Notes under the pieces: generated by a model
What the model saw: the letters and a program-made list of their open reading frames with translations, nothing else
Told to the model about the DNA's origin: nothing
The model's database searches: none
Made by a program: the position numbers and the translations under genes
Assembly: GCA_963798215.1 (NCBI GenBank)
Contig: CAWCSP010000004.1
Coordinates: 339,880-403,879 of the forward strand
DNA: 64,000 nucleotides
DNA from: an uncultured Acidobacteriota bacterium
GTDB taxonomy: Bacteria > Acidobacteriota > Thermoanaerobaculia > UBA5066
Reading direction: 5' to 3'
In this document: piece after piece, positions 11,042 to 56,574 of the stretch
Numbering within the stretch: the first letter of the stretch is position 1
Layout: the number at the start of each line of letters is the position of its first letter

Positions 11042-12103
11042 GCGGGCACCTGCTGGCTGATGCAGTGGAAGGCCCCGCCGCCCTCGAGGAGCTGCCGGGC
11101 GGGGACGGACACGGCGCGGCGGCCGGGGAAGAGCCGCGCCGATCGCGGCGCGGGCCGGCTCGTCGTTCGGGACGCCGTAGGCGGGAACGACGACGGTCGT
11201 GTTCGCGATGTAGAAGTTCACGTAGCTCGCGGGCATGACCTCGCCGTCCCGGCCCGTCACGAGGCCGGGCGACGGGATCGCCGTGACGTTCAGCCCTCGC
11301 CCCGCCGCGTCGCGCATCTTCGCGAGGTCGCGCGCGATCTGGAGGAGTACCGTGCGGTTCGGGTCCGCCGCGTCGGCGGGGGACATGCACACGACCTCGC
11401 CCGGCGCGGTGAAGCGCGCGATCGTGTCGACGTGCCCGTCCGTGTGGTCGTTCAGGAGGCCGTCGCCGAGCCAGAGGACGGTCGAGACGCCGAGCGCGTC
11501 CTTCACGCCGTTCTCGATCGCGCTCGCGGACATCCCCGCGTTGCGGTTGCGGTTCAGGAGGCACTGCCGCGTCGTGAGGCACGTCCCCTCCCCGTCCACC
11601 TCGACCGAGCCGCCCTCGAGGACCCACGGGAAGCGGTACGCGGGCAGGCCCGAAGCCTCCGCGACGCGCTCCGACACCGCGTCGTCGTGGGGAAGGACGT
11701 ACTTGCCGCCCCAGCCGTTGAATTTGAAGCACGCCGCCGCGCGCTCGTGGCCGGGGCCGGCGAGGAAGACGGGCGCGGTGTCGCGCAGCCAGATGTCGCC
11801 GAACGGGATCACGAAGAAGCGCGCGCCGAGGCCCGCAAGCGCCGTCGCCGCGCCGCGGCCCTTCTCGTCGTCCGGCACGAGGACGTGAAGCCGCTCGCCG
11901 CGCGGCGAGCCGGACAGGTCGCGGTCCGCGATCGCCGCGGCGAACTGCGTGAAGGCGTCGCGGACGCCGGGGAGAGCGTCCTCCCACAGGTCCTCGTGGC
12001 TCGGCCATGCGAGCCATACGGACTCGTGGCGGTCCCATTCGGCGGGCTGGCGGAAGCCGGCCGCGCGGGGCGTCTCCCCCGGCGGCCGCGGCGGCGCGGG
12101 CAT
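11038..12103 (-). CDS. aguA: Agmatine deiminase, with a one-base frameshift near 11134
   Basis: [24 protein letters not shown] and ASYVNFY motifs. The catalytic end [14 protein letters not shown] lies in another frame after GCG-G-CTC. Confidence 0.88.
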
Positions 12104-12122
12104 CGCGCCGGACTATAAAGGA
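12057..12122 (+). repeat. Left copy of 66-bp direct repeat (putative aguA -10 box plus first ~15 codons)
   Basis: CCGGCCGCGCGGGGCGTCTCCCC-C-GGCGGC-CGCGG-CGGCGCGGGCATCGCGCCGGACTATAAAGGA, 61/66 identical to 56509-56574. Confidence 0.92.
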
Positions 12123-12230
12123 CGGCGGTCCATGAGGTCGCAGGCCGGCGTCGCCGCGGCGATGCGGTTCCGCCTTCGTGGCTGCTAGACTGATCGCACC
12201 GCGAAGCAGCCAGCGAAAGCGTTTCGACCC

Positions 12231-14102
12231 ATGACGCCGGAGTTCGACCACTACACGATTTCCCGCGTCCTCGGCGAGGGGGGGATGGGGCTCGTCTACC
12301 TCGCGAGCGACCGGCGGACGGGACTGCCCGTGGCGATCAAGGTCATGTCCGGGCGCGCTCTGGACCCCGAGCTGCGGGCCCGGTTCCTGAAGGAGAACAG
12401 GATCCTCGCGGGTTTGAACCACCGGAACATCGTGCGGTTCTACGAGGTCACGGAGTCCCTCGAGGGCGTTCTCTCGATCGTGATGGAGTACGTCGACGGC
12501 GTCGACTTCCGCGCCTTCGAGGGGCGGCCGTTCCCCGAGCTCCTGCCGCTCATGATCCAGGCGCTCATGGGCCTCGCGTACCTGAGGAGCCAGAACATCC
12601 TTCACCGGGACCTCTCGTCGAACAACATCTTCGTCACGCTCGAGAACAGGACGCGCGTCACGAAGATCCTCGACTTCGGGGTCGCGAAGATCCTGCAGGA
12701 GCAGGCCGCGGACGGCGACGTGAGGACGCGGACGGGTCAGTTCCTCGGCAAGTTCGCGTTCGCGTCGCCGGAGCATTTCTTCCCGTCCGAGATCGACTGG
12801 AGGAGCGACGTCTACTCGCTCGGCGTCATCTTCCACCGTCTCCTGACGGGCAGGCCTCCGATCACCGTGGCGCGCAAGTCGAACTACTTCGACTGGATGA
12901 CGGCCCACCAGAAGGAGAACGCGTTCGAGGTCCTCGCGCCGCCCGACGCCCCGCCCCTGCCGGACGCCCTGCGAAGCGTGGTGAGGCGGATGCTGGCCCG
13001 GAACCGGGAGGACCGCCCCCAGAGCTACGAGGAGATCCTCCACGTCTTCGACCGCATTCAGCGGGGTCTCCCGTCCGATCTCGAGCCGAGTCCCGAAGAG
13101 CTTCGGACGCTTCCCCCGCCTGTCGAGGGGAGGATCGGCTCGTCGGGGAGCGGGAGGAGCGGGCCCACGATCTCGCCGTCGCGGCTGCCGACGCCCGGCG
13201 CCGGCTCCACCCCGTCGGCCCCCGGGGAACTGGAACGTCCCGCGCCCGTCGAGGCCTCCCAGCAGAAGCGCTGGCCCGACCTCGACGCGGCCGAGTCGCA
13301 CACCGAGCGCTTCGTCGCTCCGTCCCCGGCCCCTTTCCCCGGGGTTTCCGCCGTGCCCGCGGTACTCCCCGGCCCGCCATCGTTGCCCCTGGAACCCGAC
13401 GTCGATGCGTCCTGGCCCGGTGGAAATCCGGCGAGGACGGAGCTGCTTCCCCCGCCGGCGCCGCTCGACTCGACGAAGACGGCGACGACCGTGACGTCCG
13501 CGGAAAAGGAGGCGCCCCCGGAGATCCCGATGTGGACGGGAGGCGCGGCGAAGGACTCGCCGCCAGAGCCCGCCCGCCCCGCGCCCCCTCAGCTCGAGGA
13601 GAAGACGGAGCGGCTCGACGACGTGATCGAGAAGCTGAGGCGGCAGGCGCTCGTGGAACCTCTTCCGCCGGTCCCGGTCCGGCCGTCCGCTGAGGCTCCG
13701 CCTCCGCCGCCTCCACCGGAGCCCGTGCGGCGCCCCGAAGCGGAGCCCGCCCTCCCGCGCACCGCCGAACGCGCCCCGGCGCCGCCCGCGAAACCCGCCC
13801 GGCGGCTCGTCGTTTACGGCGCACCTCCGCCGGCGGTCCCGACCCCGCCGCCAGCGGCGCCGCGGGCCGTCGTTCCGGCGGCGCCCGCCCCCGCGCCGGA
13901 CGGGGCCGATCTCCGGGCGCGCCGCGTCGGCATCGCGCTGATCGTCGCGGCCATCGTCGTCCTCTTCGCGGCCGTCCTGTGGGTTCTGATCTCTCTTCTG
14001 CGCGGCCCCGGGGCGGGCGAGTCGCGCTCGAGCCGTGACGCCGGCCCGCCACCGTCCGTCGCCGCGGCGGACCCTGCATCCGTTCATTCCGAATCCGCAT
14101 GA
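12231..14102 (+). CDS. Hanks-type Ser/Thr protein kinase with Pro-rich linker and C-terminal TM (PpkA-like)
   Basis: LGEGGMGLVY, VAIK, HRDLSSNN, DFGVAK, ASPE and DVYSLG motifs; TM VGIALIVAAIVVLFAAVLWVLISLL. Confidence 0.9.
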   Translation: MTPEFDHYTISRVLGEGGMGLVYLASDRRTGLPVAIKVMSGRALDPELRARFLKENRILAGLNHRNIVRFYEVTESLEGVLSIVMEYVDGVDFRAFEGRPFPELLPLMIQALMGLAYLRSQNILHRDLSSNNIFVTLENRTRVTKILDFGVAKILQEQAADGDVRTRTGQFLGKFAFASPEHFFPSEIDWRSDVYSLGVIFHRLLTGRPPITVARKSNYFDWMTAHQKENAFEVLAPPDAPPLPDALRSVVRRMLARNREDRPQSYEEILHVFDRIQRGLPSDLEPSPEELRTLPPPVEGRIGSSGSGRSGPTISPSRLPTPGAGSTPSAPGELERPAPVEASQQKRWPDLDAAESHTERFVAPSPAPFPGVSAVPAVLPGPPSLPLEPDVDASWPGGNPARTELLPPPAPLDSTKTATTVTSAEKEAPPEIPMWTGGAAKDSPPEPARPAPPQLEEKTERLDDVIEKLRRQALVEPLPPVPVRPSAEAPPPPPPPEPVRRPEAEPALPRTAERAPAPPAKPARRLVVYGAPPPAVPTPPPAAPRAVVPAAPAPAPDGADLRARRVGIALIVAAIVVLFAAVLWVLISLLRGPGAGESRSSRDAGPPPSVAAADPASVHSESA

Positions 14103-14112
14103 AGGAGCGGCC

Positions 14113-14751
14113 ATGACCGAGAACCGACCCGGACGTCCAGACGACGTCGACACGACGGCTTCGAGCCCGGCCCCGGAAGGGAAATCCCTGAGAGACATGC
14201 TCTCCAATGCGCGTGCGCAGTCGAAGGGTCAGGGGGTGGTCCAGGGCTCGACGATCTTCTTCAAGAACCTCGCCGAGTCGATCGGGCACTCGAACCGGAA
14301 CCTGAAGATCGGCCTGGCGTTTCTCACGGCCGCGTTCGTCGTCGTCGCGGCCGCGCTGGGCACGCTCGTCTTCCAGGCGTTCCGGAGCCAGGTCGCGACG
14401 AAGACGAGCCTCGAGAAACAGATCCAGTCCATGGACGCCACCACGAGGAAGCAGATCCAGCCGGTCCTCGACGCGGTCGAGGGCCTCGAGAAGAAACTCG
14501 CCGAACAGCAGGAAGGGCAGAGACGCGAGCTCGAGGGAGTCCGCCAGCTTCTCCAGGCCGACATCGACGCGGTCAAGCAGGACGCCGCCGCGGGGCGACG
14601 GGACGCGGCCGAGGTTCGCACGTCACTGAAGGCCGTCGAGAAGTGGGCCGATGGATTCGGGAAGACCTACCTCCAGGACCGCGCCAACCTCGATTCGCGC
14701 CTCAGGCGGCTCGAAGGCGCGCCGCCCGCCCCCGCTCCGGCGACGAAGTGA
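14113..14751 (+). CDS. Single-TM coiled-coil hypothetical protein
   Basis: AAGGAG RBS, one hydrophobic segment, then a long coiled-coil-like region. Its stop overlaps the start of the next kinase. Confidence 0.7.
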   Translation: MTENRPGRPDDVDTTASSPAPEGKSLRDMLSNARAQSKGQGVVQGSTIFFKNLAESIGHSNRNLKIGLAFLTAAFVVVAAALGTLVFQAFRSQVATKTSLEKQIQSMDATTRKQIQPVLDAVEGLEKKLAEQQEGQRRELEGVRQLLQADIDAVKQDAAAGRRDAAEVRTSLKAVEKWADGFGKTYLQDRANLDSRLRRLEGAPPAPAPATK

Positions 14752-15932
14752 CACGGGGACCGGCGGCCGCGCGCTTCGGGCTCGGCCTCGACGACATCGA
14801 AATCGGCGAGATGGTCGGCCGGGGCGGCTCGGGAGAGGTGTTCGCGTCGCGTCACCACAGGACCGGATCCCGGCTGGCGGCGAAGATCTATCCCTTCGAC
14901 CGGATGGACCCCGCCTTCCGCCCGCGTGAACGGTTCCGGCGCGAGTGCCGGATCCTCTCGCGGATGGAGCATCCGGCGTTCCCGGCGCTCTACGGCTGCG
15001 GCGAGGAGGAGGACGGAAGCACCGGCTGGGCGTTGATGGAGTGGATCGAGGGCGTGCCCCTCTCGGCCCATCGCTCCGCGCCTCTCCACGAGATCGTTCG
15101 CCTCGCGCACGGCATTGCCTCGGCGCTCGACGCCCTGCACGTCCAGGGAGTCCTCCACCGCGACATCGCGTTCGACAACGTCCTCGTCGAGTCCCGGCGC
15201 TTCGGCCTCAACCCGAGGCTGATCGACCTCGGCATCGCGAAGGACGTCGCGTCGCACGAGGACCTCACGATGGCGGGCGCATTTCTGGGTCGCGTTCCGT
15301 TCGCGTCGCCGGAGCTTCTCGGCGGCGAGGGGGCCGCCGGCCTCGTCGACCCTCGCAGCGACGTGTTTTCGTTCGGCGTCCTCCTCTACGAGTGGCTCTC
15401 GGGGAACCCGCCGTTTCCCGGCGAGACGCCCGAGCGCGTCCTGAAGGCGCAGAAGAAGCGTGCGGCGCCGAAGTTGGTGCCGAGGGAGGACGCGGGCGAG
15501 GCGGGCGAGGCTCTTTCGGCGTTCGTCGAGAGCCTCCTCGAGACGGGAATCGAGAACAGGCCGACCTCCGACGCCGTCGTCAGGCGGCTGGGAGAGTTCC
15601 GGACGCTCTTCCCGCGCCCGGCTCCCGAGCCCGACGGGGCGCCGGCCTCCGTGTACCGAACGCCGTCCGTCGGTTACGCGCTCCTGCCGAGGCGCTTCGA
15701 CGCCGCTCCGGCGCTGCCCAGGCTGCGGGCGGTCTTCTTCCCGGAAAGCGCGCCCCGCGAAGAGCCGCCGCACGACGGGGCGCGGCCGGCCGCGCGGCCC
15801 GTTCTCCCGGCAACGGGCGATCCGGGCGGGCTCGGCTCGAGGCCCGGATTCGGCGGGATGGTCCTCGCCCTCGGGATCCTCGCGTTCGTGGCGGCGTGCG
15901 CCCTCGCGGCGTTCCTCGTGTTCAGGCGCTGA
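14748..15932 (+). CDS. Ser/Thr protein kinase with C-terminal TM
   Basis: VGRGGSGEVF, LAAK, HRDIAFDN, DLGIAK, ASPE and DVFSFG motifs. GTGA start/stop overlap. Confidence 0.85.
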   Translation: MTRGPAAARFGLGLDDIEIGEMVGRGGSGEVFASRHHRTGSRLAAKIYPFDRMDPAFRPRERFRRECRILSRMEHPAFPALYGCGEEEDGSTGWALMEWIEGVPLSAHRSAPLHEIVRLAHGIASALDALHVQGVLHRDIAFDNVLVESRRFGLNPRLIDLGIAKDVASHEDLTMAGAFLGRVPFASPELLGGEGAAGLVDPRSDVFSFGVLLYEWLSGNPPFPGETPERVLKAQKKRAAPKLVPREDAGEAGEALSAFVESLLETGIENRPTSDAVVRRLGEFRTLFPRPAPEPDGAPASVYRTPSVGYALLPRRFDAAPALPRLRAVFFPESAPREEPPHDGARPAARPVLPATGDPGGLGSRPGFGGMVLALGILAFVAACALAAFLVFRR

Positions 15933-17379
15933 CGCTTGCCGTCGGAACGGGCCGCGGAGCTGGCGCAGCCGGCGCCTTTCCCGTGGGCGCGGACGGAACG
16001 GGCTCGGGAGTCGCCGTGTCGGTCGCGGTGGGCGTCGGGGTCTGCGTCGCCGTCGGTGTTACGGTGGGCGTCGGCGGGTACTCCAGGGGCTGGAGCCCGT
16101 TGAAGGCGGCCGGCGGCCGGAACGACGGCTCCGCGGTCGCGCGCGGAGACTGCGCGACGGAGCGCGGCTTCGCCTGCGCGCGCGCATCTCGCGCCTCGGC
16201 CTCGCGCGCCGAAGCCGACGCGGGCGGTGCGGCGGGGAGCGGGGTCGCGGTCGGCGCCGCCGTCGGTGGGGGAACCGGCGATGGGGCCGGAGCGGCGGCG
16301 GCCGGCACCGGCGGCTCCGGCGCCGGAGAAACGGCGGCCGGCGGTCCCGGCACGGCCGCGGGTCGCCTGAGGTAGAAGCCGACGCCGGTGAGCACGGCGG
16401 CGACGACGAGCGCGGCGCCGCCGATGGCGGCGAGCCGGCCGCCGCGCGAGCGCGGCACGGGCGCCTCCGCTGCAGGTCCGGAAGCCGCGCCCGCGACGAG
16501 CATCCCGTCGTCGCCCGCGGGCGGGGGCGGCGCGCCGACGCCCGCCTGGCCGGTCCGTCCGAGCCCGAGGCGAGCGGGGGTTCCCCGGGAGAGGAGCGCG
16601 ACGGAGACGTTGTCCTTCGAGCCGGCCTCGAACGCGAGGCGGTAGATCTCGGCGGCCGTCTCCTGGAGGCTGCCCGTCGTCTCGATCGCCGTGAGGAAGC
16701 GCTCGGCCTCGAGGACGTCCGTGACGCCGTCCGTCGTCAGGACGACCGCGTCGCCGGGCCCGAGCGTCACGTCGCTGCGGACGTCGGGGACGACCTTCTT
16801 CTCCTGGCCGAGACTCCGCGTGAGGGCGTGCGCGAAAGGATTGCTCGCGTCGTCCTCGGGGGCGACCGAGTCGGAGCCGAGGGCCCGCCGCTGCTCGGCG
16901 AGGGCAGTGTGATCCACCGAGAGCTGCCGGACCTTCAGCCCGGAGACGAGAAAGACCTTGCTGTCGCCGATGTTCGCGACGACGAGGCGGTCGTCCGCGA
17001 GGACCATCGCGAACGCGAGGGTCGCGCCCATTCCCTTTTGCTCGGCGGAGGCCTTCCCGCGCTCGTAGATCTCACGGTTGACCTCGGCGATCCACTCGCG
17101 AATCTCGGCCTCGATCGCCGCCGCCGGCGTTGACGCCGCGTCCGCCCGCCCGGCGAAAGCCTGGATCTTCTCCCTCAGGATCTCCACGGCGAGGCGGGAG
17201 GCGACCTCACCGGCGTTGTGGCCGCCCATGCCGTCGCTCAGCACGGCGAACGCCCGCAGGGCGGAGCCCGGCGGAAGGACCGCGAGGATCGCGGCGTCCT
17301 CGTTCGACTCGCGGCGTCCCTTCTCGGAGAGACCGCCGGCGAGATACCGGGACGGGACCGTGCCCGCGTCGGCGCTCAC
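15922..17379 (-). CDS. PP2C/PPM protein phosphatase with TM and Pro/Thr-rich tail (PppA/Stp1-like)
   Basis: GRRESNEDA, SDGMGGHNAGEVAS, NIGDS, LTRSLG, TDGV and SKDNVS motifs. Confidence 0.9.
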   Translation of the reverse strand: MSADAGTVPSRYLAGGLSEKGRRESNEDAAILAVLPPGSALRAFAVLSDGMGGHNAGEVASRLAVEILREKIQAFAGRADAASTPAAAIEAEIREWIAEVNREIYERGKASAEQKGMGATLAFAMVLADDRLVVANIGDSKVFLVSGLKVRQLSVDHTALAEQRRALGSDSVAPEDDASNPFAHALTRSLGQEKKVVPDVRSDVTLGPGDAVVLTTDGVTDVLEAERFLTAIETTGSLQETAAEIYRLAFEAGSKDNVSVALLSRGTPARLGLGRTGQAGVGAPPPPAGDDGMLVAGAASGPAAEAPVPRSRGGRLAAIGGAALVVAAVLTGVGFYLRRPAAVPGPPAAVSPAPEPPVPAAAAPAPSPVPPPTAAPTATPLPAAPPASASAREAEARDARAQAKPRSVAQSPRATAEPSFRPPAAFNGLQPLEYPPTPTVTPTATQTPTPTATDTATPEPVPSAPTGKAPAAPAPRPVPTASVSA

Positions 17380-17388
17380 AGCGGCCTC

Positions 17389-18258
17389 TCAGTCCTCGCG
17401 ATAGGTCATGACGACACCGCCGATCTCGATGCGGTCGTTGTCCACGAGGCGCCGCGAGGCGTTCTCCTCGATCTCCTCGCCGTTGACGCGGGTCGGGTTG
17501 GTCCGGGCGTAGTTGATGAGGGACCAGGTGCGCCGGTCGAAGACGAGCTTTGCGTGCTTGGCGGAGACGGACTCCGGGAGGAGCTGGATGTGGCGGTACG
17601 GCGGTCCGGGGTCGCGGCCGATCGTCGTCTCGACGCGATCGCCGGGGGCGGTCCGGTAGATCCGGAGCTCGGTCTCCCGGTCGCCCTCGTCGAGGAGGAA
17701 GCGTCCCGGCAGCACGTCCAGCGCGCCGGCCGGAGGCTGGCCGGCGTGGACCAGGTCGCCGTCGGTCCATCCCGCAGGCGCGGGCCCTTCGGGAACAGGC
17801 GGCGGGGACGCGGAGCGCGACGGGACGTTGATCACGACTGGCTTTTTCAGAAGGACCGCGAGCACGACGACGAGCGTCGCGATGAGCACGAGGACGCCGA
17901 TGCCGAGCAGGATCAGGACGCTCGACGGCAGACCTCCCGGCTCGGGGACCGCGGATCGTTCCGCCGCGGGGCGGGCGGGCGCCGCCGCCGGCGCCACCGG
18001 CGCCACCGGCGGCTGAACGGCGGTGGCCTCGGGCGCAGGCGGGGGTGCGGCGAGCGGCGCGACTTGCTGCGGCGCGACCTGCTTCGGCGCGACGGCGGCC
18101 GGCGTGGGAGCCTCGCTCGCCGCAGGCAGCGGAGGCAACGGCGGAAGCGTGGGAATCGGCGTCTGCGCGCCCGCCACGGCCGGCGACAGGAGCAAGGCGG
18201 TGGCAGCCGCGGCGAGGAAGATCCGCTTCGCGAGGTTGCGGCCATTACGCATCGTCAA
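17389..18258 (-). CDS. Membrane-anchored FHA domain protein
   Basis: Signal peptide, Pro/Ala-rich segment, TM, then FHA motifs IGR...SVSAKH...TNPTRVNG...DRIEIG. Confidence 0.82.
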   Translation of the reverse strand: MTMRNGRNLAKRIFLAAAATALLLSPAVAGAQTPIPTLPPLPPLPAASEAPTPAAVAPKQVAPQQVAPLAAPPPAPEATAVQPPVAPVAPAAAPARPAAERSAVPEPGGLPSSVLILLGIGVLVLIATLVVVLAVLLKKPVVINVPSRSASPPPVPEGPAPAGWTDGDLVHAGQPPAGALDVLPGRFLLDEGDRETELRIYRTAPGDRVETTIGRDPGPPYRHIQLLPESVSAKHAKLVFDRRTWSLINYARTNPTRVNGEEIEENASRRLVDNDRIEIGGVVMTYRED

Positions 18259-18316
18259 TTTCCCTCGATCGGTCCGTTCGGTTCGACGAGGATACGCCGG
18301 AGGCGCGCGAGCCGCG

Positions 18317-19135
18317 TCACGCCGTTGGCCGAGGCGGGAGCCGGACCGCCGCGAAGTGCTCCGGGTCCGGGCGCTCCTCCGGGCGCCACGAAAGGCCGAG
18401 CCGGACGAGCTCCCTCGGAACGTCGGCCCCGGCCGACGGCCGGGAAGGCACGGCGAAGGCGGACAGGGCGACGGTCTTGTCGGCGTCCTCCGGTGCCCCG
18501 TCCCCGGCGAGGCGGCCCTCGAGGAGCACGTGGACCTGCGCGGCCAACCGGTAAGCGAGCGCGGCGCGGAGAGAGCGGCCGCGCGCCCCGGTGCGCATCT
18601 CCGGGGCGACGAACGGCGACCCTTCTTCCTCCGCGGCGTCGAGTCCCCGGAGTCCGGACGCGCCGTCGTCGCCGGGCCGCGGCTCGCAGAGGAACTCGTT
18701 CACGCTCAGGTGCCGCGCGTCGAGGCGCGCTCCTTCGCGCAGCCGCTTCAGCTCGTGGAGGGGGATGTGGACGCCGGCGGTGCCGCACTCGAGAGCTGCG
18801 ATCTGCACCTCGGCGAGGGCCGCGATCGTGCCGCGGCGGGTGCGGTGACCGCCGCCGGCCACGGGCTCGGAAGTCTGGAACGCGATGAATGATCGCCCGG
18901 CCACTTCGGTCGACCCGAAGTCGAGGACCCGGGGGAGCAGCGGATGGTCGAAGCGGGCCGTCGCGGCGTAGATCGCGTCCACCGCGGCCGCCGCAGAGCG
19001 CGACGCCGGGTCGAAGCCGTCGACGCGGATCCACGCGGCGACTTCGTCCGTCTCGCGCACCGCGCGGTAGCGGAAGGGCAAACCGGTCTGCTCGGGCCCG
19101 TCGAGCAGCCGGTATCCCGGAATCCACGAGGGCAT
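18317..19135 (-). CDS. Degenerate protein-kinase-like protein (putative pseudokinase)
   Basis: IPGYRLL, ARFDHPLLPRVLDFG, FVAPE and LSWRPEERP echo Hanks subdomains, but there is no Gly loop, VAIK or HRD. Confidence 0.55.
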   Translation of the reverse strand: MPSWIPGYRLLDGPEQTGLPFRYRAVRETDEVAAWIRVDGFDPASRSAAAAVDAIYAATARFDHPLLPRVLDFGSTEVAGRSFIAFQTSEPVAGGGHRTRRGTIAALAEVQIAALECGTAGVHIPLHELKRLREGARLDARHLSVNEFLCEPRPGDDGASGLRGLDAAEEEGSPFVAPEMRTGARGRSLRAALAYRLAAQVHVLLEGRLAGDGAPEDADKTVALSAFAVPSRPSAGADVPRELVRLGLSWRPEERPDPEHFAAVRLPPRPTA

Positions 19136-19237
19136 CGTGCCGGAATCTTAGGCCGGACCGCCGAACGGCCGGACCCTGGGGATTTTCCTTGCTTCCGGCG
19201 GGTGCGGGCGGTACATGTGCGGGCAAAGGGGCGATTC

Positions 19238-19984: not shown

Positions 19985-20158
19985 GGGTGCGGCCCGGCCG
20001 GGGGGCCGGAAGCCGATGGATTACAATTCGACAGTTCAAGTCGGATTTGAGCGCTCCGTCGCACCGCCTCGGCGGGCCGGAGGTCTCGAAGGAGCAGGCA
20101 TCTGGCTCGGAAACGTGAAACCGGGTCGGCCCCGAAAGAGGACCGGAAAACTCCGACG

Positions 20159-21127: not shown

Positions 21128-21159
21128 AGCGCGCCGCGACGAACGGAGGATTGATCTAG

Positions 21160-21936: not shown

Positions 21937-21964
21937 CGCCGGCCGCGGGTCTGCCGGCGGCGAT

Positions 21965-48864: not shown

Positions 48865-48870
48865 GGCGCC

Positions 48871-49566
48871 CTACGCCAGCCCCATGGCCTGCACGACGGT
48901 CCGGAGGTCGTCGACGGAGCGGGCCCACATGAGCCACGTGATCGCGTAGTAGAGAAAGAGGATGCCGACGCCGACGATCGCGACGCGCGCGAGGGTGACG
49001 GCCGGGGAGAGCTTGCGCGCCGGCGCGGCCGTGACGTGGTACGCGTCCGGCGTGACCTTGTCGCCCAGGTCGGCGAGGTACTCCGCCAGGAGCCGGTAGA
49101 CCCGGTTCTTGATCTCGACGGCCTTCTCGGGGCGCTCGCGGTACTTGCCGCGGAACCCGAGGGCCAGCCCGGTGAAGACGATCGCCGCGAGCTCCACGTC
49201 TTCCGGACGGAGCTCCTTGGCGATGTTGAAGAACTGGTCGCCGCCGATGTTCGTCTTGAAGTACTTCTCCTCGAAGATGCGCTGCTCCCATTCGGCGCTG
49301 TGCTCCCAGCCGGAGTGGAGGAGGATCTCGTCCGCGAGGACGACGAGGGGATACCGCGCCTTCTCGTAGAGCGCGTCGAGCCGCGGGTCGCCCCTCACGG
49401 CGCGCGCCTGCTCGTCGAAGATCTCCTCGAGATCGGCCGCGACCGCGCCGGGCTCGAGCTTGACGCCGCGGCGGACCTTCTGCCGGAACGAGCTCAGGAA
49501 CAGGAAGAGGCGGGAGCAGACCCGGAACAGGTCGGTCGTGCTCGTGCCGCTATCCACGGGTCGCAC
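48871..49566 (-). CDS. tssL: T6SS TssL (DotU), no OmpA domain
   Basis: ARYPLVVLADE, W, GGDQFF and LALGFRGKY motifs, C-terminal TM. Start may be GTG 49557. Confidence 0.92.
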   Translation of the reverse strand: MRPVDSGTSTTDLFRVCSRLFLFLSSFRQKVRRGVKLEPGAVAADLEEIFDEQARAVRGDPRLDALYEKARYPLVVLADEILLHSGWEHSAEWEQRIFEEKYFKTNIGGDQFFNIAKELRPEDVELAAIVFTGLALGFRGKYRERPEKAVEIKNRVYRLLAEYLADLGDKVTPDAYHVTAAPARKLSPAVTLARVAIVGVGILFLYYAITWLMWARSVDDLRTVVQAMGLA

Positions 49567-50920
49567 TCAGGGGCTTGGACACGACGTACAGGAAGAACTT
49601 CAGCTTCGGGTCGAGCATTCCCGAGATCGCCATGACGTGGTCCTTCACGACGTTGCCCCAGTAGATCCCCTCTTTCTCGATCGTGAAGTAGTAGTGGTCG
49701 TCCCCGGCGGGAAGGCCCGAGGGGATGCGCTTGAGCATCTCGAGGTCGAGACCGAAGAGCCGCCGCTGCCGAAGCAGCGGAATGTCGCGCACGGCGCCGA
49801 CCTTCATCGTGTTGAGCCGCTCCTTCAGGTCGCGCTCGGGCAGGTCCGTCTCCACCGAGAGGAAGAACTCCGCCTCGCTCGTGAACCACTCCGGCTGCAG
49901 GTCCGCGGCGAGGAGGTCGTCTCTCAGGACGAACTCGACGCGGATGAAGCGCGAGGCGACGACCTTCTCCGTCAGGAGCTCGATGTTGTGGCAGAGGTCG
50001 AAAAAGCAGGGGCCGAGGCGGTCGTGGTCGTAAAGCGGAACCTTCAGGGGCCGCCGCCCCTCGTCGAAGATCGCGAGGTCCCCGAGGAGCCGGGCGAACT
50101 CGCAGTAGACCGGGAACGGATGGACACGCGGGATCCGCGTGAGCTGCTGGAGAACGTAGACGAAGCTGCCGAGGATCTTCAGCTTCATGAGCGTCTGCCA
50201 GCCCGAGGTCCCCTCCGATTCGATCGCGAGGCGTCCCGAAGCGACCTCGGTCAGGACGAGCCGGTGCTTGGCCTCGAGCCGGTTCGTGACGGATTCGCAC
50301 AGGGTCTGGAGGGCCTCGGACGCCCCGATCTCCGTCACGGGCGGGATGAAGTCCTTCGACAGGATCGGGAAGTTCTTTCCCTGGCCCGACCTCTCGACGA
50401 TCGCGAGCGGCAGGCACTCGTAGCCGTCCCGGTTCTCGTTGCCGAAGAAGAGGCGCCCGTTCACGAGGCGCGTCTCGACGGACTGGCGGTTCGCGCCGGT
50501 GTTCTCGTCCGGAACTTCGAGAACCTCGGCGGTCTGCCGGCGGTCCTGGCCGCGGCGGTCTTCGCCGGGGAAGAACGTGTTCGGCGCTTCCTCGCGGAAC
50601 ACGGGGATGCCGAGGAACACGTCCATCCGCCCGCCGGCCTGCTCGAGCTCGGCCTTGAACGGGCGGGGGAAGATCCGGAGGTTCCCGCCGGCCGAGAGGA
50701 TGGACCCGTCCTTCAGCTTCGCCTCGATGTCGCGCAGCTCGAAGACGAAGTTCTCGAGCTGGTCCGCCGCGACGTCCATTCGCGTGACGCCCCAGAAGAA
50801 CGGCTGGATCCGCCGCACCTCGTCGTGGAGCGTCTCCTCCCGGAAACGCTCCGCCGCCTGCAGGTGATGCGGCCGAAGGAACATTCCTTCGGCCCAGAGC
50901 ACAGGCCGGGACTTCTTCAC
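49550..50920 (-). CDS. tssK: T6SS baseplate TssK
   Basis: VLWAEGMFLRPHHLQ, FFWGV, HP...Y and P.YDH..LG.CF motifs. Confidence 0.95.
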   Translation of the reverse strand: MKKSRPVLWAEGMFLRPHHLQAAERFREETLHDEVRRIQPFFWGVTRMDVAADQLENFVFELRDIEAKLKDGSILSAGGNLRIFPRPFKAELEQAGGRMDVFLGIPVFREEAPNTFFPGEDRRGQDRRQTAEVLEVPDENTGANRQSVETRLVNGRLFFGNENRDGYECLPLAIVERSGQGKNFPILSKDFIPPVTEIGASEALQTLCESVTNRLEAKHRLVLTEVASGRLAIESEGTSGWQTLMKLKILGSFVYVLQQLTRIPRVHPFPVYCEFARLLGDLAIFDEGRRPLKVPLYDHDRLGPCFFDLCHNIELLTEKVVASRFIRVEFVLRDDLLAADLQPEWFTSEAEFFLSVETDLPERDLKERLNTMKVGAVRDIPLLRQRRLFGLDLEMLKRIPSGLPAGDDHYYFTIEKEGIYWGNVVKDHVMAISGMLDPKLKFFLYVVSKPLSATRG

Positions 50921-51390
50921 GGCTCGGCGATCGAGAATTCCCGGTCGCGGATCTGGACGTGAATCGTCTTGCCCTTCCACTGGTTCCGGCGCAGGACGAC
51001 GAGATAGCGCCCGGGGTCTTCGGTCTGGAAACGGTAGTCCGCGACGATCACGAGGAACGTGTCGTCCTTGCCCGCCGGGATCGTCAGCTCCGTCGCGCAG
51101 CGCCCGTCCGCCTGCGAGAAGGTCGCGGTCCGCGTCCGGTCCCTGAGGGAGTCCCGGAGCGGATCGTAGAACCACTTCTCGCGGAGGGCGCGGATCCTCT
51201 CGACCTCGGACTCGGTGGCCCGCACGGCGTCGACGGTCAGGAGCGTCCCCCCGTTGATCTCGGGCCCGCAGCGGAACGCGACCGTCGCCGCCGCGGAGCC
51301 GCATCCCGCCGCGAGCGCGGCGCCGGCGACCGCGAGGACGAGGGCGGCGAGTCGGGGGCCGCGGTCCGCGTTTCCGTGTGTGTTCGGCAT
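50917..51390 (-). CDS. tssJ: Lipoprotein, TssJ-like
   Basis: Lipobox LAAGC, IN.G, and FLVIVADY. Directly upstream of tssK. Confidence 0.65.
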   Translation of the reverse strand: MPNTHGNADRGPRLAALVLAVAGAALAAGCGSAAATVAFRCGPEINGGTLLTVDAVRATESEVERIRALREKWFYDPLRDSLRDRTRTATFSQADGRCATELTIPAGKDDTFLVIVADYRFQTEDPGRYLVVLRRNQWKGKTIHVQIRDREFSIAEP

Positions 51391-51395
51391 CGCGT

Positions 51396-53294
51396 CTACT
51401 TCCTCTTGTTGAGCTTCTGGAATTCCGTCTGCGAGACGTGCGCCGCGGCCTGAAGCACCTGGTCCTGGACGAGATCGGGGTTGAGGTCCTTCACGAGGTC
51501 GCGATACTGATTCCACCATTCCGCCGTCTCCCCGCGGAGCTTCCACCCCGCTCCCGCTTTCCCCGCTTCGATGACAGACGGGCTGATTCTCTTCCAGAGC
51601 CTGGTGAACCACAACCTCGGCGCCTCGTGGTGGCCCGCCGAGATCGCGATCTGCCAGCGCCGCAGCTCGGCGAGGTAGTCGCGCACGTCGTCCGGGTTCA
51701 CGTCCCTGCCCTCGGCCGCGGCGGCCAGGAAGCCGCTCAGGCGATCGCGGAAGTTCGGAAGCCGGAAGCTCGCAGTCTCGGCGCCCGGCATCGTCATCGC
51801 CTCGACGAGGCCGAGGGTGAACGTCTCGACGTCCTGGGCGAAGCGCAGGACGTCGCGCAGGACGGCGAGCCGGGGCTCGAGCGTCGGAGCCTTGCCGTCC
51901 TCGGGCGCCAGGAGAGCGCGCCACGGAACGGCGGTCATGGCCGCGGCCGCTTTCGGGACTGCCGTCGCGGGCCGCGCGGCCGCCTCGGCCTCGGCGAGGC
52001 GGCGTTCCAGCTCGGCCACGCGGCGCCGGAGCCGTAGCTCCTCGAGGTTCGGAACGTCGCCCGGCACGGTCACGGGGAACTGCAGCCGGAGCTGCTCGAG
52101 GACGCGCGGTCTCCTCTCCGGCGCAAGAGCGTGGAGCTCTCGCACGACGAGCGACTTGAGCGCCTCGCGCCGGTCGGCCGGCGTCGAAAAGCGGTAAGCG
52201 GCGCTCTCCCTCACGAGCTCGTCGGCCAGCTCGCGCGCCTTGCGGTCGAGGGCAACCTCGTCCAAGGTGAGCGGAGCGCCGGCGATGCCGGAGCCCGGTT
52301 CCGCGGCCGCGGGCCGAGGATCGTGCAGGGGCGGCTGCGCGCGCCGCGCGGCGGCCGCTTTCGGAATCGCCGCGGGCGCGGACGGGACGGCGGCGACGGG
52401 CCCGGGCGGCGCAGACGGGGCCGGAGGCCGCGCGGGCGGCGCCGGAGACGGTTCCTCGGAGGGTGCGAACGCGGGCAGCCGCCGGGCGAGCCACGAGCCG
52501 ACGGCGCTCTCCTCGTCCTGCCGCAGGAGCTTGAGCAGCTCGTGGCGAAGCGTCGTCTCGAGGTCCATCGCCGAGGATTCGATGCACCGACGCTGGCACT
52601 CCTCGATCAAAAAGCCGACCTTGGGCGAGAGGATCAGCTCGTCGGACCCGGTCTTGAGGCCGAGGGGCTGGAGGAAAAGGTCGTTCAGCCACTCGTAGGG
52701 CCCCGCGAAGAGACGCCCTTCCCACAGCTCCGTCAGGGCCTGCTCCCGTGACCAGTTCGCGTCCCTGAGGATGCGTTGAACGCTCGCGGTGCGCGAGCGC
52801 AGGAGCGCGTCGCAGAGGTGGCGGGTGTCGGCGAAGAGCTCTCCGCGCTGCGCGGCGGCCTCGCGGGCACCGCGCACGATGCTCTGGACGGCCGGGTCCG
52901 GCCACGCTTCGCCCCGCAGGACGCGGGGAAATGGCATCTCCGGGAGCGTCGCGTCGACGAGGCGGACCCTCACCGGCGTCGACGACACGAGGAAGACGTC
53001 CCCCGACCGGATCTCCACCTCTCCCTTGACCTGACCGGACTGGACCGAGGTCCCGTTCGTGCTGCCGTTGTCCTTCAGGAAGAGCCGCCCTCTCTCGAAG
53101 CGGACCTCGGCGTGAGCCGACGAAACTCCGTAGCCGTACGAAAGGACGAACTCGTTTCGCGTGCTCGTCTTCTTGTCCAGCGAAACCCGGCCGATGTGGA
53201 CGGTCGCGGGCTCGTCCGTGGCCGGTGTCACGTGACGGAGCCCTTCCATCGGCCCGAGCCAGACCTCGACCGCGACGAAGACGGGACGGCTCAC
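51396..53294 (-). CDS. FHA domain protein with a Clp N-domain-like module (TagH/Fha-like)
   Basis: FHA: IGR...GVSSAH...DNGSTNGT. Then IVRGAREAAAQRGELFADTRHLCDALL and LSPKV..LIE (Clp_N-like), a Pro linker and a helical C-terminus. Confidence 0.75.
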   Translation of the reverse strand: MSRPVFVAVEVWLGPMEGLRHVTPATDEPATVHIGRVSLDKKTSTRNEFVLSYGYGVSSAHAEVRFERGRLFLKDNGSTNGTSVQSGQVKGEVEIRSGDVFLVSSTPVRVRLVDATLPEMPFPRVLRGEAWPDPAVQSIVRGAREAAAQRGELFADTRHLCDALLRSRTASVQRILRDANWSREQALTELWEGRLFAGPYEWLNDLFLQPLGLKTGSDELILSPKVGFLIEECQRRCIESSAMDLETTLRHELLKLLRQDEESAVGSWLARRLPAFAPSEEPSPAPPARPPAPSAPPGPVAAVPSAPAAIPKAAAARRAQPPLHDPRPAAAEPGSGIAGAPLTLDEVALDRKARELADELVRESAAYRFSTPADRREALKSLVVRELHALAPERRPRVLEQLRLQFPVTVPGDVPNLEELRLRRRVAELERRLAEAEAAARPATAVPKAAAAMTAVPWRALLAPEDGKAPTLEPRLAVLRDVLRFAQDVETFTLGLVEAMTMPGAETASFRLPNFRDRLSGFLAAAAEGRDVNPDDVRDYLAELRRWQIAISAGHHEAPRLWFTRLWKRISPSVIEAGKAGAGWKLRGETAEWWNQYRDLVKDLNPDLVQDQVLQAAAHVSQTEFQKLNKRK

Positions 53295-55432
53295 GGCCGC
53301 CCCCCGGACGCGTGCTCGTCCTCGCGAATCTCGGCGAGGATCTGCTGAATCTCGAGATGGAGAGGCTGTCGCTCGAAGAGAAGGGACTGAAGCTCCGTGA
53401 GGATCCCGACGAGCTCGGGCAGGATCCGCTCGAGCTTCTCCTCCCGGAAGAGAGGATCGAAGTCGGCGGGTCCGGCCGCGACCGAGAAACCCGCCACCCG
53501 AGTCACGAGGCGCAGGGCGAGAAGAAGCGCCCGCTCCCAGAGCGCGTCAGGGATCGCGTTCGGCCGGTGGGCCTGGCGGTCGTTGCGGCCCCAGAAGACC
53601 TGCGTCCTCGAGAAGGCGGGCGCCGCGTCGGGAGCCCGCTTGAAAAGCGCCGCGAGCGAGACGTCCCGTCGGGCCTCCTGCGGCGCCCCGGCGATCTCCC
53701 GCCCGAGCCGGTCGGCCGCCTTGAGGACGGTGGCGAGGTCCTGGTCATCGTTCCGGAGCAGCAGGCGGAGAAGGGAAACGCCGAGAGCGTAGAGGTCGGT
53801 CGGCGTACCGAAGTCGGGGAAGACCCGATAGCGGGCGCCCGGGAGCCTCGTGCCGAGCGCGAGGCGGAGGCGCCGGAGGCCGCTCTCCTCCAGATCGAGC
53901 AGGTCGCTCGCGAACGCCGTCTCGTCCGCCCGGATCTCGCCGGGTGTCGCGCGGACGGCGAGGCCCGCGAATCCGAAACCGAGAGTCGGGTCCGGGAGCG
54001 ACACGAAGATCGTGTCGCGCGGCCGCGGCGCGGGGTAGAGGCCGTACGGGTCGGAGAGGCGGCCGCGGAGGCGGAAGCGCCTCGCGGCCGTGCCCTCCTC
54101 GTCGAGGTCCGTGAAGACGAACTCGCCCGGCCGGTACCCGGCGAGGCGGAACTCCTGGATCTCGGGGGCCGCGTAGGGAACGGTCAGCCCCTCTCCGGGC
54201 AGGACGACGGTGGGCGAGCCCGGAGCCGGGAGCGGGACCGCGGCTGCGGCGAGACCGTGGATCCGAACCTGGAACGTCCAGAGGACCGGGAGGCCGTCTC
54301 CCGCCCCCGAGAGCTCGAAGAGGAGGTGGCGCGGGTGGAGGTCGAGGTGCGGCCGCCCCGTGGACCGGTAATAGTCGATGAGCCCTTCGAGAATCTGCCG
54401 AAACGCGGCCAGCTTGAGGAACAGGATCTCCACGGCGTCGAAGCCCGAGCTCTCGGCGGGGAAAAGCAGCCTCCGGGCGGGCGCCGGCGGACGGGCGAGC
54501 CAGGCCCAGCGCGGAGGAAACGCGCCGCCGGCGTCCGGACCCGGCACGGGCAGGTCCTCCCAGGGGCGGCCGCCGAGCGTGTCGGCGAGAGCCTCGAGGT
54601 CGAGCGGCGAGGCCACGGTCAGGAGGAACGGCGACCCGTAGAAGGTCAGCGGCGTCAGGAGATCGCCGATCCCCGCGCCGGCGGGAGATCCCGGAGGAAG
54701 GGCGCGCACCGCTTTCGCGGTTTCCGCGCCGACGAGGGCGGCGGCCTCTTCCTCCGAGCAGACCTCGCGGAGCGCGCGGCCCAGGTCGTCGAGGAGGTCG
54801 GTAGCGGACCGGACTGCGGCCCCTGCCGCGGCAGCGGGGGACGTCGAGTAGACCGTGGGCGCATCGGGTCCGCGGCCGCAGGGCTCGCACCAGACGAAGC
54901 GCTTCAGAGTCGTGGCGAAGGCGGGGAGCCCGGCGGCGGCGAGCCAGGCCTCGTCGCGGCAGAGCGAGAGCGGGTGGCGGCAGCGCGGGCAGGGCGGCAC
55001 GAAAAACGAGCGGGCCGGACGTGAGTAGACGAGGGGCGGAAGACCGCGGGCGGTCTCACCCGGGCGCTCGTCCGCGCGGACGAGGCGCGGAAAGTGCGGC
55101 GACAGCGGGCGCAGCTCGAGGAGGCGCGCGTTCTCCCGTTCCCAGCGTTCCTCGAGGTCGCGGTTCGTCATGCCGAGGGTCGCCGGCGTCGCTCCGTCCG
55201 GCCAGGCGTCCGGCATCAGCTTGAGCGCGCAGAGCTCGATGAGCGTCCCGTCGTCCCCCTTGACCGCGGCGAGGTACACGCGCGCGAAGTCGTCCGCCTC
55301 CGAGAGACGCACCCAGGGGCTGCGCCCGCCGCCCTGGCCGGGAGTCTCGAGGACGACATGCAGGCCGAAAGGAGAGTCCACCTCTGCCCACGGCAGAAGT
55401 CGTGCGGTCTCGAGGCCCCCGGGTTCTTGCAC
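53291..55432 (-). CDS. Atypical kinase-like protein with Cys cluster
   Basis: CALK, CPRC...LCRD...CEPC, PHLDLHPRHLL, YAAPEI and DLYALG, separated by large insertions. Confidence 0.55.
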   Translation of the reverse strand: MQEPGGLETARLLPWAEVDSPFGLHVVLETPGQGGGRSPWVRLSEADDFARVYLAAVKGDDGTLIELCALKLMPDAWPDGATPATLGMTNRDLEERWERENARLLELRPLSPHFPRLVRADERPGETARGLPPLVYSRPARSFFVPPCPRCRHPLSLCRDEAWLAAAGLPAFATTLKRFVWCEPCGRGPDAPTVYSTSPAAAAGAAVRSATDLLDDLGRALREVCSEEEAAALVGAETAKAVRALPPGSPAGAGIGDLLTPLTFYGSPFLLTVASPLDLEALADTLGGRPWEDLPVPGPDAGGAFPPRWAWLARPPAPARRLLFPAESSGFDAVEILFLKLAAFRQILEGLIDYYRSTGRPHLDLHPRHLLFELSGAGDGLPVLWTFQVRIHGLAAAAVPLPAPGSPTVVLPGEGLTVPYAAPEIQEFRLAGYRPGEFVFTDLDEEGTAARRFRLRGRLSDPYGLYPAPRPRDTIFVSLPDPTLGFGFAGLAVRATPGEIRADETAFASDLLDLEESGLRRLRLALGTRLPGARYRVFPDFGTPTDLYALGVSLLRLLLRNDDQDLATVLKAADRLGREIAGAPQEARRDVSLAALFKRAPDAAPAFSRTQVFWGRNDRQAHRPNAIPDALWERALLLALRLVTRVAGFSVAAGPADFDPLFREEKLERILPELVGILTELQSLLFERQPLHLEIQQILAEIREDEHASGGRP

Positions 55433-55505
55433 TGCCGGGGATGATCGGATTCCCCCGGGGCGCCGTCAAGGCGCGGAGCGGGCGGGCGCGCCGGGTCGTG
55501 GGCGC

Positions 55506-56471
55506 TCAGACGTGGAAGATCAGCCGCTGCTTGCCGAGTACGACGACGTCGCCGTCCTCGAGACGCTGGTTCTCGACGAGCTTGCCGTTCACAGCCACGC
55601 CGTTCTCGGAGCCGAGGTCGGAGATGAAGCATCCGTCGGACGTGAGGGTGACCTGCGCATGCCGGCGCGAGACGTCGGGGGAGGGGAGCTGAAGATCGCT
55701 CTGCACCAGACGGCCGATCACCGAAACGCCGGGCTTCAGCGCGAATTCCTTCACGGGCTCGTCGCCGGCGAGAAGGGAAAGCCGCGCGCGCGGCAGGACG
55801 ACCGTTGCGCTGTGGGACGGCGGGGGCGTCTCGGAAGCGGAGGGAGCCGGCGCGCCGGGCGAGGGCACCCGCACGACGGTGATCACGGTGCCGTCCGGCG
55901 TGAGGCTGTCCGCGGCCTGGCGGGCGGCCACCGGCGCGGGCGGAGGAGACGGTGGCGGCGGCGGGGGCTGGGTCGATGGAGACGGAGACGGGGCAGGCCC
56001 CGGCGGCGGCGCCCCGGCCTCGAGCTCGTCCTCCGAGCGGAACGCGGCCACGAACGTATCGCGCACCCTGAGGACGTCCTCGAGGTCGCGGCGCTCGTCG
56101 GCGAGGCGCTTCTCGAAGCCGGCGATCTGCTTCGTGAACTCGTCCTCGGGGAACTCCCCGAGCTCCTCGCGGAACTCGAGCTCTTCCTTCTCGAGCGAGA
56201 GCTGCTCGACGGCACGTTCGACCGCGGCGCGCAGCACCTTGAGCCGCTGGTACTCGCGTTGTGCCTTCTCCTTGAGAGGCTGCGATTCGCGCGCGAGCTC
56301 GCCGCGGCGCGCTTCGTAATCGCTCTTCACGCGCGCGTAGACGACCGGCGAGACCTTCTGGTTCTTCGCCTCCATCTTCGCAAGGCGCTCCTCGAGGACC
56401 ATTTCTTCTTTGCGAATTCGAACGAGCTCGTCGATGGGGGAAAGGTCGATCTGCGTGAGTTCCGCTCGCAT
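55506..56471 (-). CDS. Coiled-coil plus C-terminal FHA domain protein
   Basis: IGR..SD.....DVSRRHA...DLGSENG..VNG. GGAG RBS before ATG 56471. The ORF extends in frame to the aguA remnant ATG at 56555. Confidence 0.85.
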   Translation of the reverse strand: MRAELTQIDLSPIDELVRIRKEEMVLEERLAKMEAKNQKVSPVVYARVKSDYEARRGELARESQPLKEKAQREYQRLKVLRAAVERAVEQLSLEKEELEFREELGEFPEDEFTKQIAGFEKRLADERRDLEDVLRVRDTFVAAFRSEDELEAGAPPPGPAPSPSPSTQPPPPPPSPPPAPVAARQAADSLTPDGTVITVVRVPSPGAPAPSASETPPPSHSATVVLPRARLSLLAGDEPVKEFALKPGVSVIGRLVQSDLQLPSPDVSRRHAQVTLTSDGCFISDLGSENGVAVNGKLVENQRLEDGDVVVLGKQRLIFHV

Positions 56472-56508
56472 CGAGGCGTCTCCAGGAGTTCCGAGTCTAG
56501 CGCCTGCC

Positions 56509-56574
56509 CCGGCCGCGCGGGGCGTCTCCCCGGGCGGCGGTTTCGGCGCGGGCATCGCGCCGGACTATAAAGGA
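56509..56574 (+). repeat. Right copy of 66-bp direct repeat (aguA 5' remnant, contains the SRPBCC stop codon)
   Basis: Encodes [16 protein letters not shown] on the minus strand, versus agu[17 protein letters not shown]. Confidence 0.92.

Follow-up and report, generated by a model that had tools for sequence, protein, structure and literature searches.

The primary papers on homology-facilitated illegitimate recombination (HFIR) are said to be those of de Vries & Wackernagel (2002), Prudhomme et al. (2002) and Meier & Wackernagel (2003). HFIR joins one homologous and one non-homologous end, as described in PMC3240628 and, in the context of type VI secretion systems (T6SS), in PMC5361080 and PMC11751169, and PMC3240628 describes it for naturally transformable bacteria and for conjugation in Escherichia coli. 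Here we analyse a 66-bp direct repeat of the 5′-end of aguA, an agmatine deiminase gene, which brackets a 44-kb T6SS cluster in a stretch of 64,000 nt (the window; G000:C4:339880-403879) from the genome of an uncultured Acidobacteriota bacterium, denoted G000. We read the repeat as a clear-cut case of a recombination scar, of a kind already known; the mechanism is an ordinary one that can be read here with unusual ease.

Other described systems share parts of this structure. In PMC3240628, Campbell-type single crossovers of a circle in E. coli are described, where 56/60 Lac- clones gave a PCR product diagnostic of a duplication, and duplications of 109-950 bp flanked the insert in 14 sequenced clones. 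The G000 locus resembles such insertions in that the direct repeats correspond to the shared homology and flank the inserted DNA, and a crossover between the two repeats would bring back the empty site; however, the G000 repeats give a homology of just 66 bp, a circular form has not been observed, and to make the circle in the first place an illegitimate joint would be needed. According to PMC5361080, displaced T6SS effector modules of Vibrio cholerae leave orphan immunity genes behind, and PMC11751169 describes effector swapping in T6SS islands of Pseudomonas aeruginosa. In both species, as would be the case here, homologous and illegitimate recombination reshape T6SS loci and stranded remnants record an earlier state, but small effector/immunity modules are exchanged there, whereas the remnant in G000 marks the boundary between a whole cluster and a housekeeping gene.

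The repeat and its novel joint

The aguA region was used as query against 40 relatives plus G000, the right junction was used as query against 29 genomes of the genus, and proteins of the window were mapped onto the fetched loci of relatives to obtain gene orders. Two genomes flagged as unpublished (G025 and G030) gave weak matches only in the aguA-region search and support no claim. The G000 genome comprises 4,118,545 bp in 5 contigs and is 90% complete, and its identity to G022 around the locus is only 83-91% at the nucleotide level; the genomes compared represent different species. Genes discussed around the repeat are read on the minus strand.

Positions 12057-12122 and 56509-56574 align without gaps with 61/66 identical letters, and the similarity ends abruptly on both sides. 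In each copy a TATAGT box is followed 8 nt downstream by the ATG of a 16-codon stretch of aguA, and the stop codon TAG of the neighbouring SRPBCC gene sits inside the TATAGT of the right copy; a first-pass annotation of the window had already noted the repeat, its box and start, ∼15 aguA codons and the SRPBCC stop in the right copy, and this stands. The mismatches are at 56532, 56539 and 56541-56543, thus four of the five lie within 5 nt. On the promoter side the copies agree in all of 31 bp. The two perfect end blocks (23 and 31 nt) are each present in exactly two places of the window, as compared with 0.01 and 0.00 expected from shuffled sequences, respectively. No other place in the genome matches the repeat over >60 nt at ≥90% identity, so the 66-mer is not the dispersed repeat that the same annotation had considered it might be. 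The next best match, 77% over 60 nt, is a GC-rich sequence at C4:1078771.

Compared with the aguA 5′-ends of G010 and G022, the left copy reaches 95-97% identity and the right copy, which carries a clustered CCGCG>AAACC change within its aguA codons, 88-92%. Contrary to what had been proposed, the left copy is thus no replacement start brought in by an island; the right copy is the relic. Moreover, ∼10 nt upstream of the right copy (GGCGCTCCCC) also match the SRPBCC/aguA junction of G010. As judged from this extended match, the right copy is a truncated relic of an SRPBCC/aguA junction of the kind kept in G010, G022 and G014, cut after aguA codon 16, rather than an independent insertion. At mismatch 56532 the right copy shares its letter with G022, which fits a derivation of the two copies from different alleles. 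The upstream end of the repeat is the limit of aguA upstream conservation in every context, and the sequence at this limit is CGTCCTTTATAGT in the left copy, G010, G022, G014 and G021, CTTCC in the right copy and CGTCCCTTATAGT in G001. Such an edge is predicted by a homology boundary and not by a staggered cut. Two further candidates were rejected: a transposon target-site duplication, for which 66 bp is too long and no transposase is present, and a templated insertion of 66 nt, as the homology to the G010 junction extends past the repeat.

The SRPBCC/aguA junction is intact in two close relatives. G022 and G010 have the order pepQ-VOC-ArsR-SRPBCC-aguA-aguB with a single copy of the 66-mer and with the SRPBCC stop inside the TATAGT of aguA, thus the empty site predicted by the first-pass annotation exists base for base. 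The adjacency of SRPBCC and the aguA promoter is also found in G014, and that of the kinase promoter at the left edge of the cluster and the aguA promoter is found in G006, G020 and G002. The remaining joint, where aguA codon 16 meets the sequence just upstream of the promoter of the terminal FHA gene, was found beside the FHA gene in none of 58 loci from the genus and wider relatives, and two pattern scans across it gave 0 matches in contigs of species-representative genomes, a collection in which the genome analysed here is apparently not included. Across the loci compared, this is the only novel joint of the arrangement. A metagenome search with the 349-aa open reading frame (ORF) that crosses the joint returned 2 loci with distant FHA proteins at 32-39% identity, which were not used.

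An artificial joint would be expected if strains with and without the T6SS had been merged into a chimeric contig of this metagenome-derived assembly. Such an artefact would be in keeping with the number of contigs and the completeness given above and with at least two apparent single-base frameshifts in the window, which point to imperfect base-level quality; moreover, the sampled words were found in public sequencing runs at a share of 0.14 at most, so that the source reads were out of reach. Nevertheless, when Logan contigs were aligned to 55800-57400, a 193-nt contig of run X4 covered 56373-56565 with 4 differences and bridged the joint, and a 520-nt contig of the same run held the left copy in its aguA/spacer context. 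In run X1, from another study, a 33-kb contig passes through 55800-57394 with 164 differing letters and 33 gap letters, has no deletion at the relic, and carries the letters of the left copy at 56539 and 56541-56543. A chimera would also need a shared k-mer at the joint, and the sequences of relatives show none, so we regard an assembly artefact as extremely unlikely. Misassembly at the junction, a possibility raised in the first annotation, is contradicted by the contigs that bridge the right junction. The joint is real and old, being carried by contigs of two independent metagenomes, one of which is ∼12% diverged. Because this diverged relative has the relic without the clustered change, the arrangement is older than the separation of the two, and the AAACC cluster is a later change on the branch to G000. 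Parts of runs X2-X4 that are not covered by contigs are uninformative, and prevalence and excision are not readable from contigs. One contig of run X2 stops within the relic, after 23 nt of it, and has a loose end there; it was left uninterpreted.

Long residence of the T6SS cluster

The same cluster is found at the same neighbourhood in several species of the genus. The order is pepQ-VOC-ArsR-SRPBCC-[T6SS]-aguA in G006 and G020, pepQ-VOC-[T6SS]-aguA in G002, and pepQ-[T6SS]-4.3 kb-VOC-ArsR-SRPBCC-aguA in G014, the SRPBCC/aguA junction of which is the same as in G010 and G022. In G042 pepQ adjoins the FHA gene, and G021 and G001 have pepQ-other-aguA. From the first kinase gene to the terminal FHA gene the cluster is colinear in all five T6SS-bearing genomes compared (G000, G014, G006, G020 and G002). 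Flanking repeats of >14 nt are present in none of the four others, and the relic was not seen at their right junctions. TssC was absent at E≤1e-10 from G022, G010, G021 and G001 (0/4; completeness 89-99%), therefore T6SS-less alleles exist in the lineages that are closest to G000 in the rpoB tree.

Both edges of the module are the same promoter-like boxes in 5/5 of the T6SS-bearing genomes. At the left edge, TGCTAGACTGA or TTGTTAGACTGA is kept at the kinase box in G000, G014, G002, G006 and G020, with divergence upstream of the box. The G000 spacer between this box and that of aguA is absent in G006 and G020, where the two promoters stand back to back, G002 has an unrelated spacer of ∼56 nt, and a spacer similar to that of G000 is present in a contig of run X4. 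At the right edge, the start of the FHA gene, its GGAGA Shine-Dalgarno sequence and its TAGACT box (TACACT in G006) are conserved in G006, G020, G002, G014 and G042, and the full GCGCTAGACT is found in G000, G002, G014 and G042.

The divergence of the cluster follows that of its surroundings. The rpoB tree groups (G000,G022),G010, then (G014,(G021,G001)), then G042, then (G006,G020), and trees of the flanks agree with this grouping and place G002 with G014. Trees of the T6SS segments 44485-53000 and 14643-21900 give the same three groups as the flanks and rpoB, and pairwise identity of the T6SS core (86-92%) tracks that of aguB and pepQ (87-92%) in 10/10 pairs. A comparison of GC and tetranucleotide profiles, along the lines suggested in the first-pass annotation, showed a mildly atypical interval, with a tetranucleotide distance at the 90th percentile among 179 windows of the same size and a GC of 0.688 against a genome mean of 0.700; the flank 1-10000, which is outside the cluster, is equally atypical in composition. 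Neither composition nor phylogeny thus argues for a foreign origin, and gene order and divergence taken together indicate that, in this genus, the pepQ...aguA neighbourhood has long housed the 44-kb T6SS cluster, which some species have and others have lost by deletion.

This history bears on a reading of the locus as a site-specific island at the aguA 5′-end, with the 66-mers as attL and attR and a recombinase encoded elsewhere that acts in trans. Such an island would resemble SXT/R391 elements at the 5′-end of prfC, which are large inserts between near-identical short repeats and leave intact the protein-coding gene whose 5′-end they occupy, and it would account for the imperfect direct repeats at both ends, for the exact empty site in G022 and G010 and for the complete 5′-end that aguA retains. 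A six-frame search of the genome gave 9 matches to tyrosine recombinases, which also count in favour of this reading, 2 to rve transposases and 2 to resolvases, all of which lie outside the window, where no match to PF00589, PF00665 or PF00239 was found; the nearest on this contig is ∼338 kb away. However, Pfam scans of the ORFs in the 44-kb cluster revealed no recombinase, excisionase or transfer gene, and unlike SXT/R391 the G000 cluster has neither integrase, excisionase nor conjugation genes, lacks the repeats in 4/4 other species at the same locus, and has diverged together with the chromosome. Moreover, the cluster of G014 lies at a different junction, beside pepQ, the module edges are promoter-like boxes instead of att-like sequences, and the upstream edge of the repeat equals the conservation limit of the aguA promoter. 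We therefore hold site-specific integration to be very improbable. The lack of a recognisable integrase, as first annotated, was confirmed by the family searches of the window, whereas the entry of the cluster as an island at aguA was not supported by the colinear clusters without repeats in G006, G020, G002 and G014 and their divergence in step with the flanks, and mobilisation in trans by an integrase is unlikely. The fallback given there, an old or homology-driven insertion, comes close to the reading that we favour.

Probable recombination between alleles of the locus

One homologous crossover combined with one illegitimate joint leads to the pattern seen here, namely a single novel joint among adjacencies that are otherwise all known from relatives. 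Both HFIR of linear DNA and a Campbell-type single crossover of a circle with a short homology fit this pattern. We favour, with moderate confidence, the interpretation that the 66-bp repeat is a recombination scar left when T6SS-less and T6SS-bearing alleles of the locus were joined by one homologous and one illegitimate crossover. In this model the starting arrangement would have been like that of G006 and G020, and loss of the T6SS by deletion would then have brought SRPBCC directly against the aguA promoter, its stop codon coming to lie within the -10-like box of aguA. Subsequent joining of T6SS-less and T6SS-bearing alleles would have given the mosaic seen in G000, where one crossover would be homologous and the other would have joined aguA codon 16 illegitimately to DNA immediately upstream of the FHA promoter. 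The promoter-like box, the start codon and 16 codons of aguA would thereby have been doubled, the left copy serving aguA and the right copy staying with SRPBCC, and no dedicated recombinase would be involved.

The same structure may be reached by two routes. In route (a), T6SS-bearing DNA, either linear or a circle with ∼66 bp of aguA, would enter a T6SS-less genome; in route (b), a short (66-nt) tail of T6SS-less DNA, anchored by homology in SRPBCC, would be joined into a T6SS-bearing genome. The first-pass annotation had the 44-kb cluster as the piece that moved, but this need not be so, as both routes give the same structure. Likeness to HFIR lies in one end joined by homology and the other non-homologous, in the lack of a dedicated recombinase and in the extra sequence beside the anchor. 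The G000 case differs in that it is deduced from comparative genomics only, and that 44 kb, if the T6SS was incoming, is much larger than the usual experimental inserts.

Several observations weigh against this interpretation or limit it. In 100-nt sliding windows, identity of the SRPBCC cassette and of aguA/aguB to 5-8 relatives showed no breakpoint or switch, so the homologous crossover is not seen directly and no donor or recipient can be named. The sequences upstream of the FHA gene in relatives are too divergent to place the joint to the base, which makes microhomology unreadable. All comparisons of the locus are between species, at ∼83-91% nucleotide identity, so that an old event is viewed with its intermediate forms missing. 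As to the residence of the cluster, one of the three T6SS segment trees (31621-41000) is discordant, the T6SS core is mildly atypical among 10-kb windows (GC at the 4th-10th and tetranucleotide distance at the 88th-93rd percentile), and the rpoB tree covers the C-terminal half of the gene in 20/29 genomes of the genus, nine without a single-piece match, including G002, being left out.

The order of genes in G014 offers another way to the same joint without any transfer of DNA. If, within one genome, a segment that starts at the FHA promoter, takes in the cassette and ends at aguA codon 16 were duplicated in tandem, this would itself make the codon-16 joint; reciprocal losses would then put the cassette on the opposite side of the T6SS and leave the 66-bp remnant. 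The alternative order pepQ-T6SS-X-VOC-ArsR-SRPBCC-aguA in G014, with the same SRPBCC/aguA junction, would be turned into the G000 order with the exact joint by the duplication and two losses, and G042 also has pepQ beside the FHA gene. However, three events are needed, and no other remnants of a duplication were found at the junctions. Furthermore, a spacer of ∼200 nt between pepQ and VOC is homologous in G022, G010 and the outgroup G006 (G000 and G002 lack it, and their VOC directly adjoins pepQ), therefore the ancestor of the G000 clade most likely had pepQ next to VOC and not next to the T6SS. Duplication followed by loss accordingly appears unlikely to us.

The polarity of the event may also be reversed, with the repeat-flanked state ancestral to G000, G022 and G010 and the empty sites formed secondarily by deletion between the 66-bp copies. 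The T6SS of G000 branches as predicted by vertical descent, so that the ancestor of the clade may have had it, and recombination between the direct repeats restores exactly the empty site that is observed. The branching order of G000, G022 and G010 varies between genes, hence a single loss could suffice, and the joint is old enough to be found in the diverged contig of run X1. On the other hand, the SRPBCC/aguA junction is intact in G014, a member of the neighbouring clade, so the junction predates the scar, and reversed polarity leaves the origin of the relic unexplained, since a T6SS-less junction had to exist first anyway. We consider this alternative improbable, to about the same degree as duplication followed by loss, and retain the joining of two alleles as the preferred explanation.

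Promoter-like boxes, gene content and implications

In 16/20 loci of the genus, a TATAGT stands before aguA with 7-9 nt between it and the start codon, whatever else lies upstream. Genome-wide, we counted the occurrences of hexamers that have an ATG or GTG 5-10 nt downstream opening an ORF of ≥100 codons. TATAGT (9/27), TAGACT (41/136) and TAGAAT (71/163) often precede such starts, as compared with ∼5% for most permuted hexamers (e.g. 6/116, 8/173 and 52/944; range 0-9%), and for six of the eight TANNNT hexamers tested 30-44% of occurrences stand before starts of long ORFs, with 15% for TAGAGT and TACAGT. These counts suggest that leaderless transcripts are common in this organism, and they favour a reading of the repeat as the leaderless-type promoter and start of aguA, followed by 16 codons. 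Scans for consensus promoters and terminators at both junctions found nothing, including no -35/-10 pair, so the promoter reading rests on the conservation of the -10-like box and on the hexamer statistic. The SRPBCC gene repeatedly terminates within whichever -10-like box comes next: its stop is inside the TATAGT of aguA in G000, G010, G022 and G014, and inside the TAGACT box of the FHA gene in G020 (locus L039 2480-2660).

The relic may still be active. The ATG of the right copy at 56555 opens an ORF of 349 codons that runs in frame into the FHA gene, with 28 codons open before the conserved FHA start, which is M29 of this ORF, at 56471. The relic could thus be a captured second promoter with a leaderless start that gives an N-terminally extended FHA protein, and the repeat pair could let RecA alone excise and re-insert the 44-kb cluster. 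Hints in this direction are the identical 31 bp, the retention of the relic in the ∼12% diverged relative, the in-frame ORF and the commonness of -10-like boxes; we regard the proposal as improbable. If it were true, the aguA box of the relic could tie expression of the T6SS, through the first gene of the membrane-complex operon, to agmatine/polyamine metabolism, and the 44-kb T6SS would be a cassette that switches without a recombinase.

Coordinates of the features are given in Table 1. Read from the right copy, the module begins with the FHA gene, a 713-aa protein without assigned function, a further FHA gene, TssK, TssL, TssM, TagF, two Hcp, TagJ and TssA, continues with TssB, TssC, TssE, TssF, TssG, ClpV and VgrG, and after a variable region ends with the regulatory part, which comprises a fused VipA/VipB-like gene, a methyltransferase, FHA, PP2C and two Ser/Thr kinases, which are followed by the left copy, aguA and aguB. 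Pfam recognises 12/13 parts of the T6SS core, i.e. TssA, B, C, D (Hcp, twice), E, F, G, H (ClpV), I (VgrG), K, L and M, while TssJ was not recognised in the Pfam scans of ORFs in the window.

Table 1. Positions of the repeat, the T6SS module and adjacent genes in the window
Feature	Position	Strand	Basis or remark
aguB (N-carbamoylputrescine amidase-like, CN_hydrolase)	10190..11041	-	Pfam PF00795, E 1.6e-52
aguA (agmatine deiminase, PAD_porph)	11038..12103	-	Pfam PF04371, E 6e-95, profile positions 1-295 of 321
Left repeat copy	12057..12122	-	Working aguA 5′-end: TATAGT box, ATG at 12103, codons 1-16
Spacer of ∼60 nt between aguA and STK1 -10 boxes	12123..12185		Contains 12-nt palindrome TCGCCGCGGCGA
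TAGACT -10-like box upstream of first kinase gene	12186..12191	+	Conserved left edge of T6SS module
T6SS module	12231..56471		Pfam; colinear with G014, G006, G020, G002
Terminal FHA-domain gene	55506..56471	-	Pfam FHA, E 2.9e-17
TAGACT -10-like box of FHA gene	56494..56499	-	Conserved right edge of T6SS module
Novel joint, putatively illegitimate	56508..56509		aguA codon 16 fused to sequence upstream of FHA promoter
Right repeat copy	56509..56574	-	Reads as relic of SRPBCC/aguA junction; ATG at 56555, 16 aguA codons
SRPBCC/AHSA1-family gene	56565..57083	-	Pfam PF08327; GTG start overlaps ArsR stop
ArsR-type regulator	57080..57424	-	ORF translation with helix-turn-helix-like stretch read by eye, start MNGLDG; not Pfam
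VOC/glyoxalase-family gene	57421..57876	-	Pfam PF00903
pepQ (Xaa-Pro dipeptidase)	57877..59196	-	Pfam PF21216 and PF00557

Within the module, the single ORF with VipA and VipB domains (23585-25078, plus strand) is a second sheath-like gene, ∼30% identical to TssC, and is conserved in G014, G006, G020 and G002; a gene for a peptidoglycan-binding-domain protein comes next in the window. The variable VgrG/effector region spans ∼25-31 kb, and 25082-29300 is the least conserved part of the cluster, for which G014, G020 and G006 have two VgrG copies and different genes. This segment is probably the effector/immunity region. For the 713-aa protein (53291-55432), ESM Atlas returned kinase-like clusters at 0.93-0.94, which we take as a lead only.

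In the flanks, the ATG of aguB at 11041 overlaps the aguA stop (ATGA). Frame analysis and alignment place a 1-nt insertion in aguA near 11138 (11130-11145) relative to 8/8 relatives, which shifts the frame of the last ∼30 codons and yields an aguA-aguB fusion ORF of 637 codons; this may be either a real pseudogene or fusion, or an indel of the assembly. The ATG of VOC is likewise out of frame with the body of its gene, and the C-run at 57840-57880 has 7 C as compared with 8 in G022. Taken together, the two shifts suggest single-base indel errors in the assembly. The pepQ-VOC spacer of relatives holds TTGACA and an AT-rich near-palindrome (TTAACTATTCTAAGAA) and is probably the cassette's own promoter and ArsR operator. 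In G016 (locus L023) and G005 (L028) a VOC gene lies between aguA and aguB.

Further to the left, the 3.4 kb at 6783-10195, between formate-dehydrogenase-like genes and aguB, are without counterpart in the six relatives that span this place (G022, G010, G021, G014, G006 and G020), and G001 has ∼1.8 kb of unaligned sequence there. This second indel at the aguA locus holds part of an ORF for a DUF2231 membrane protein (6200-7468) and a cytochrome b561/molybdopterin-oxidoreductase fusion. The alpha subunit of the formate dehydrogenase is split by an in-frame TGA at 6130-6132 on the minus strand, in the motif QARV-TGA-HGPTV, which we take to be the usual place of selenocysteine in formate dehydrogenases.

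The locus opens no new class of system. It is a warning for genome scans that direct repeats together with an exact empty site can mimic an integrated island although the cluster is an old resident. The imprecise event left a datable scar, which proves that a T6SS-less junction preceded the present arrangement. A complete T6SS cluster can thus differ between sister species without any mobile-element machinery, with its alleles recombining via conserved flanking genes.

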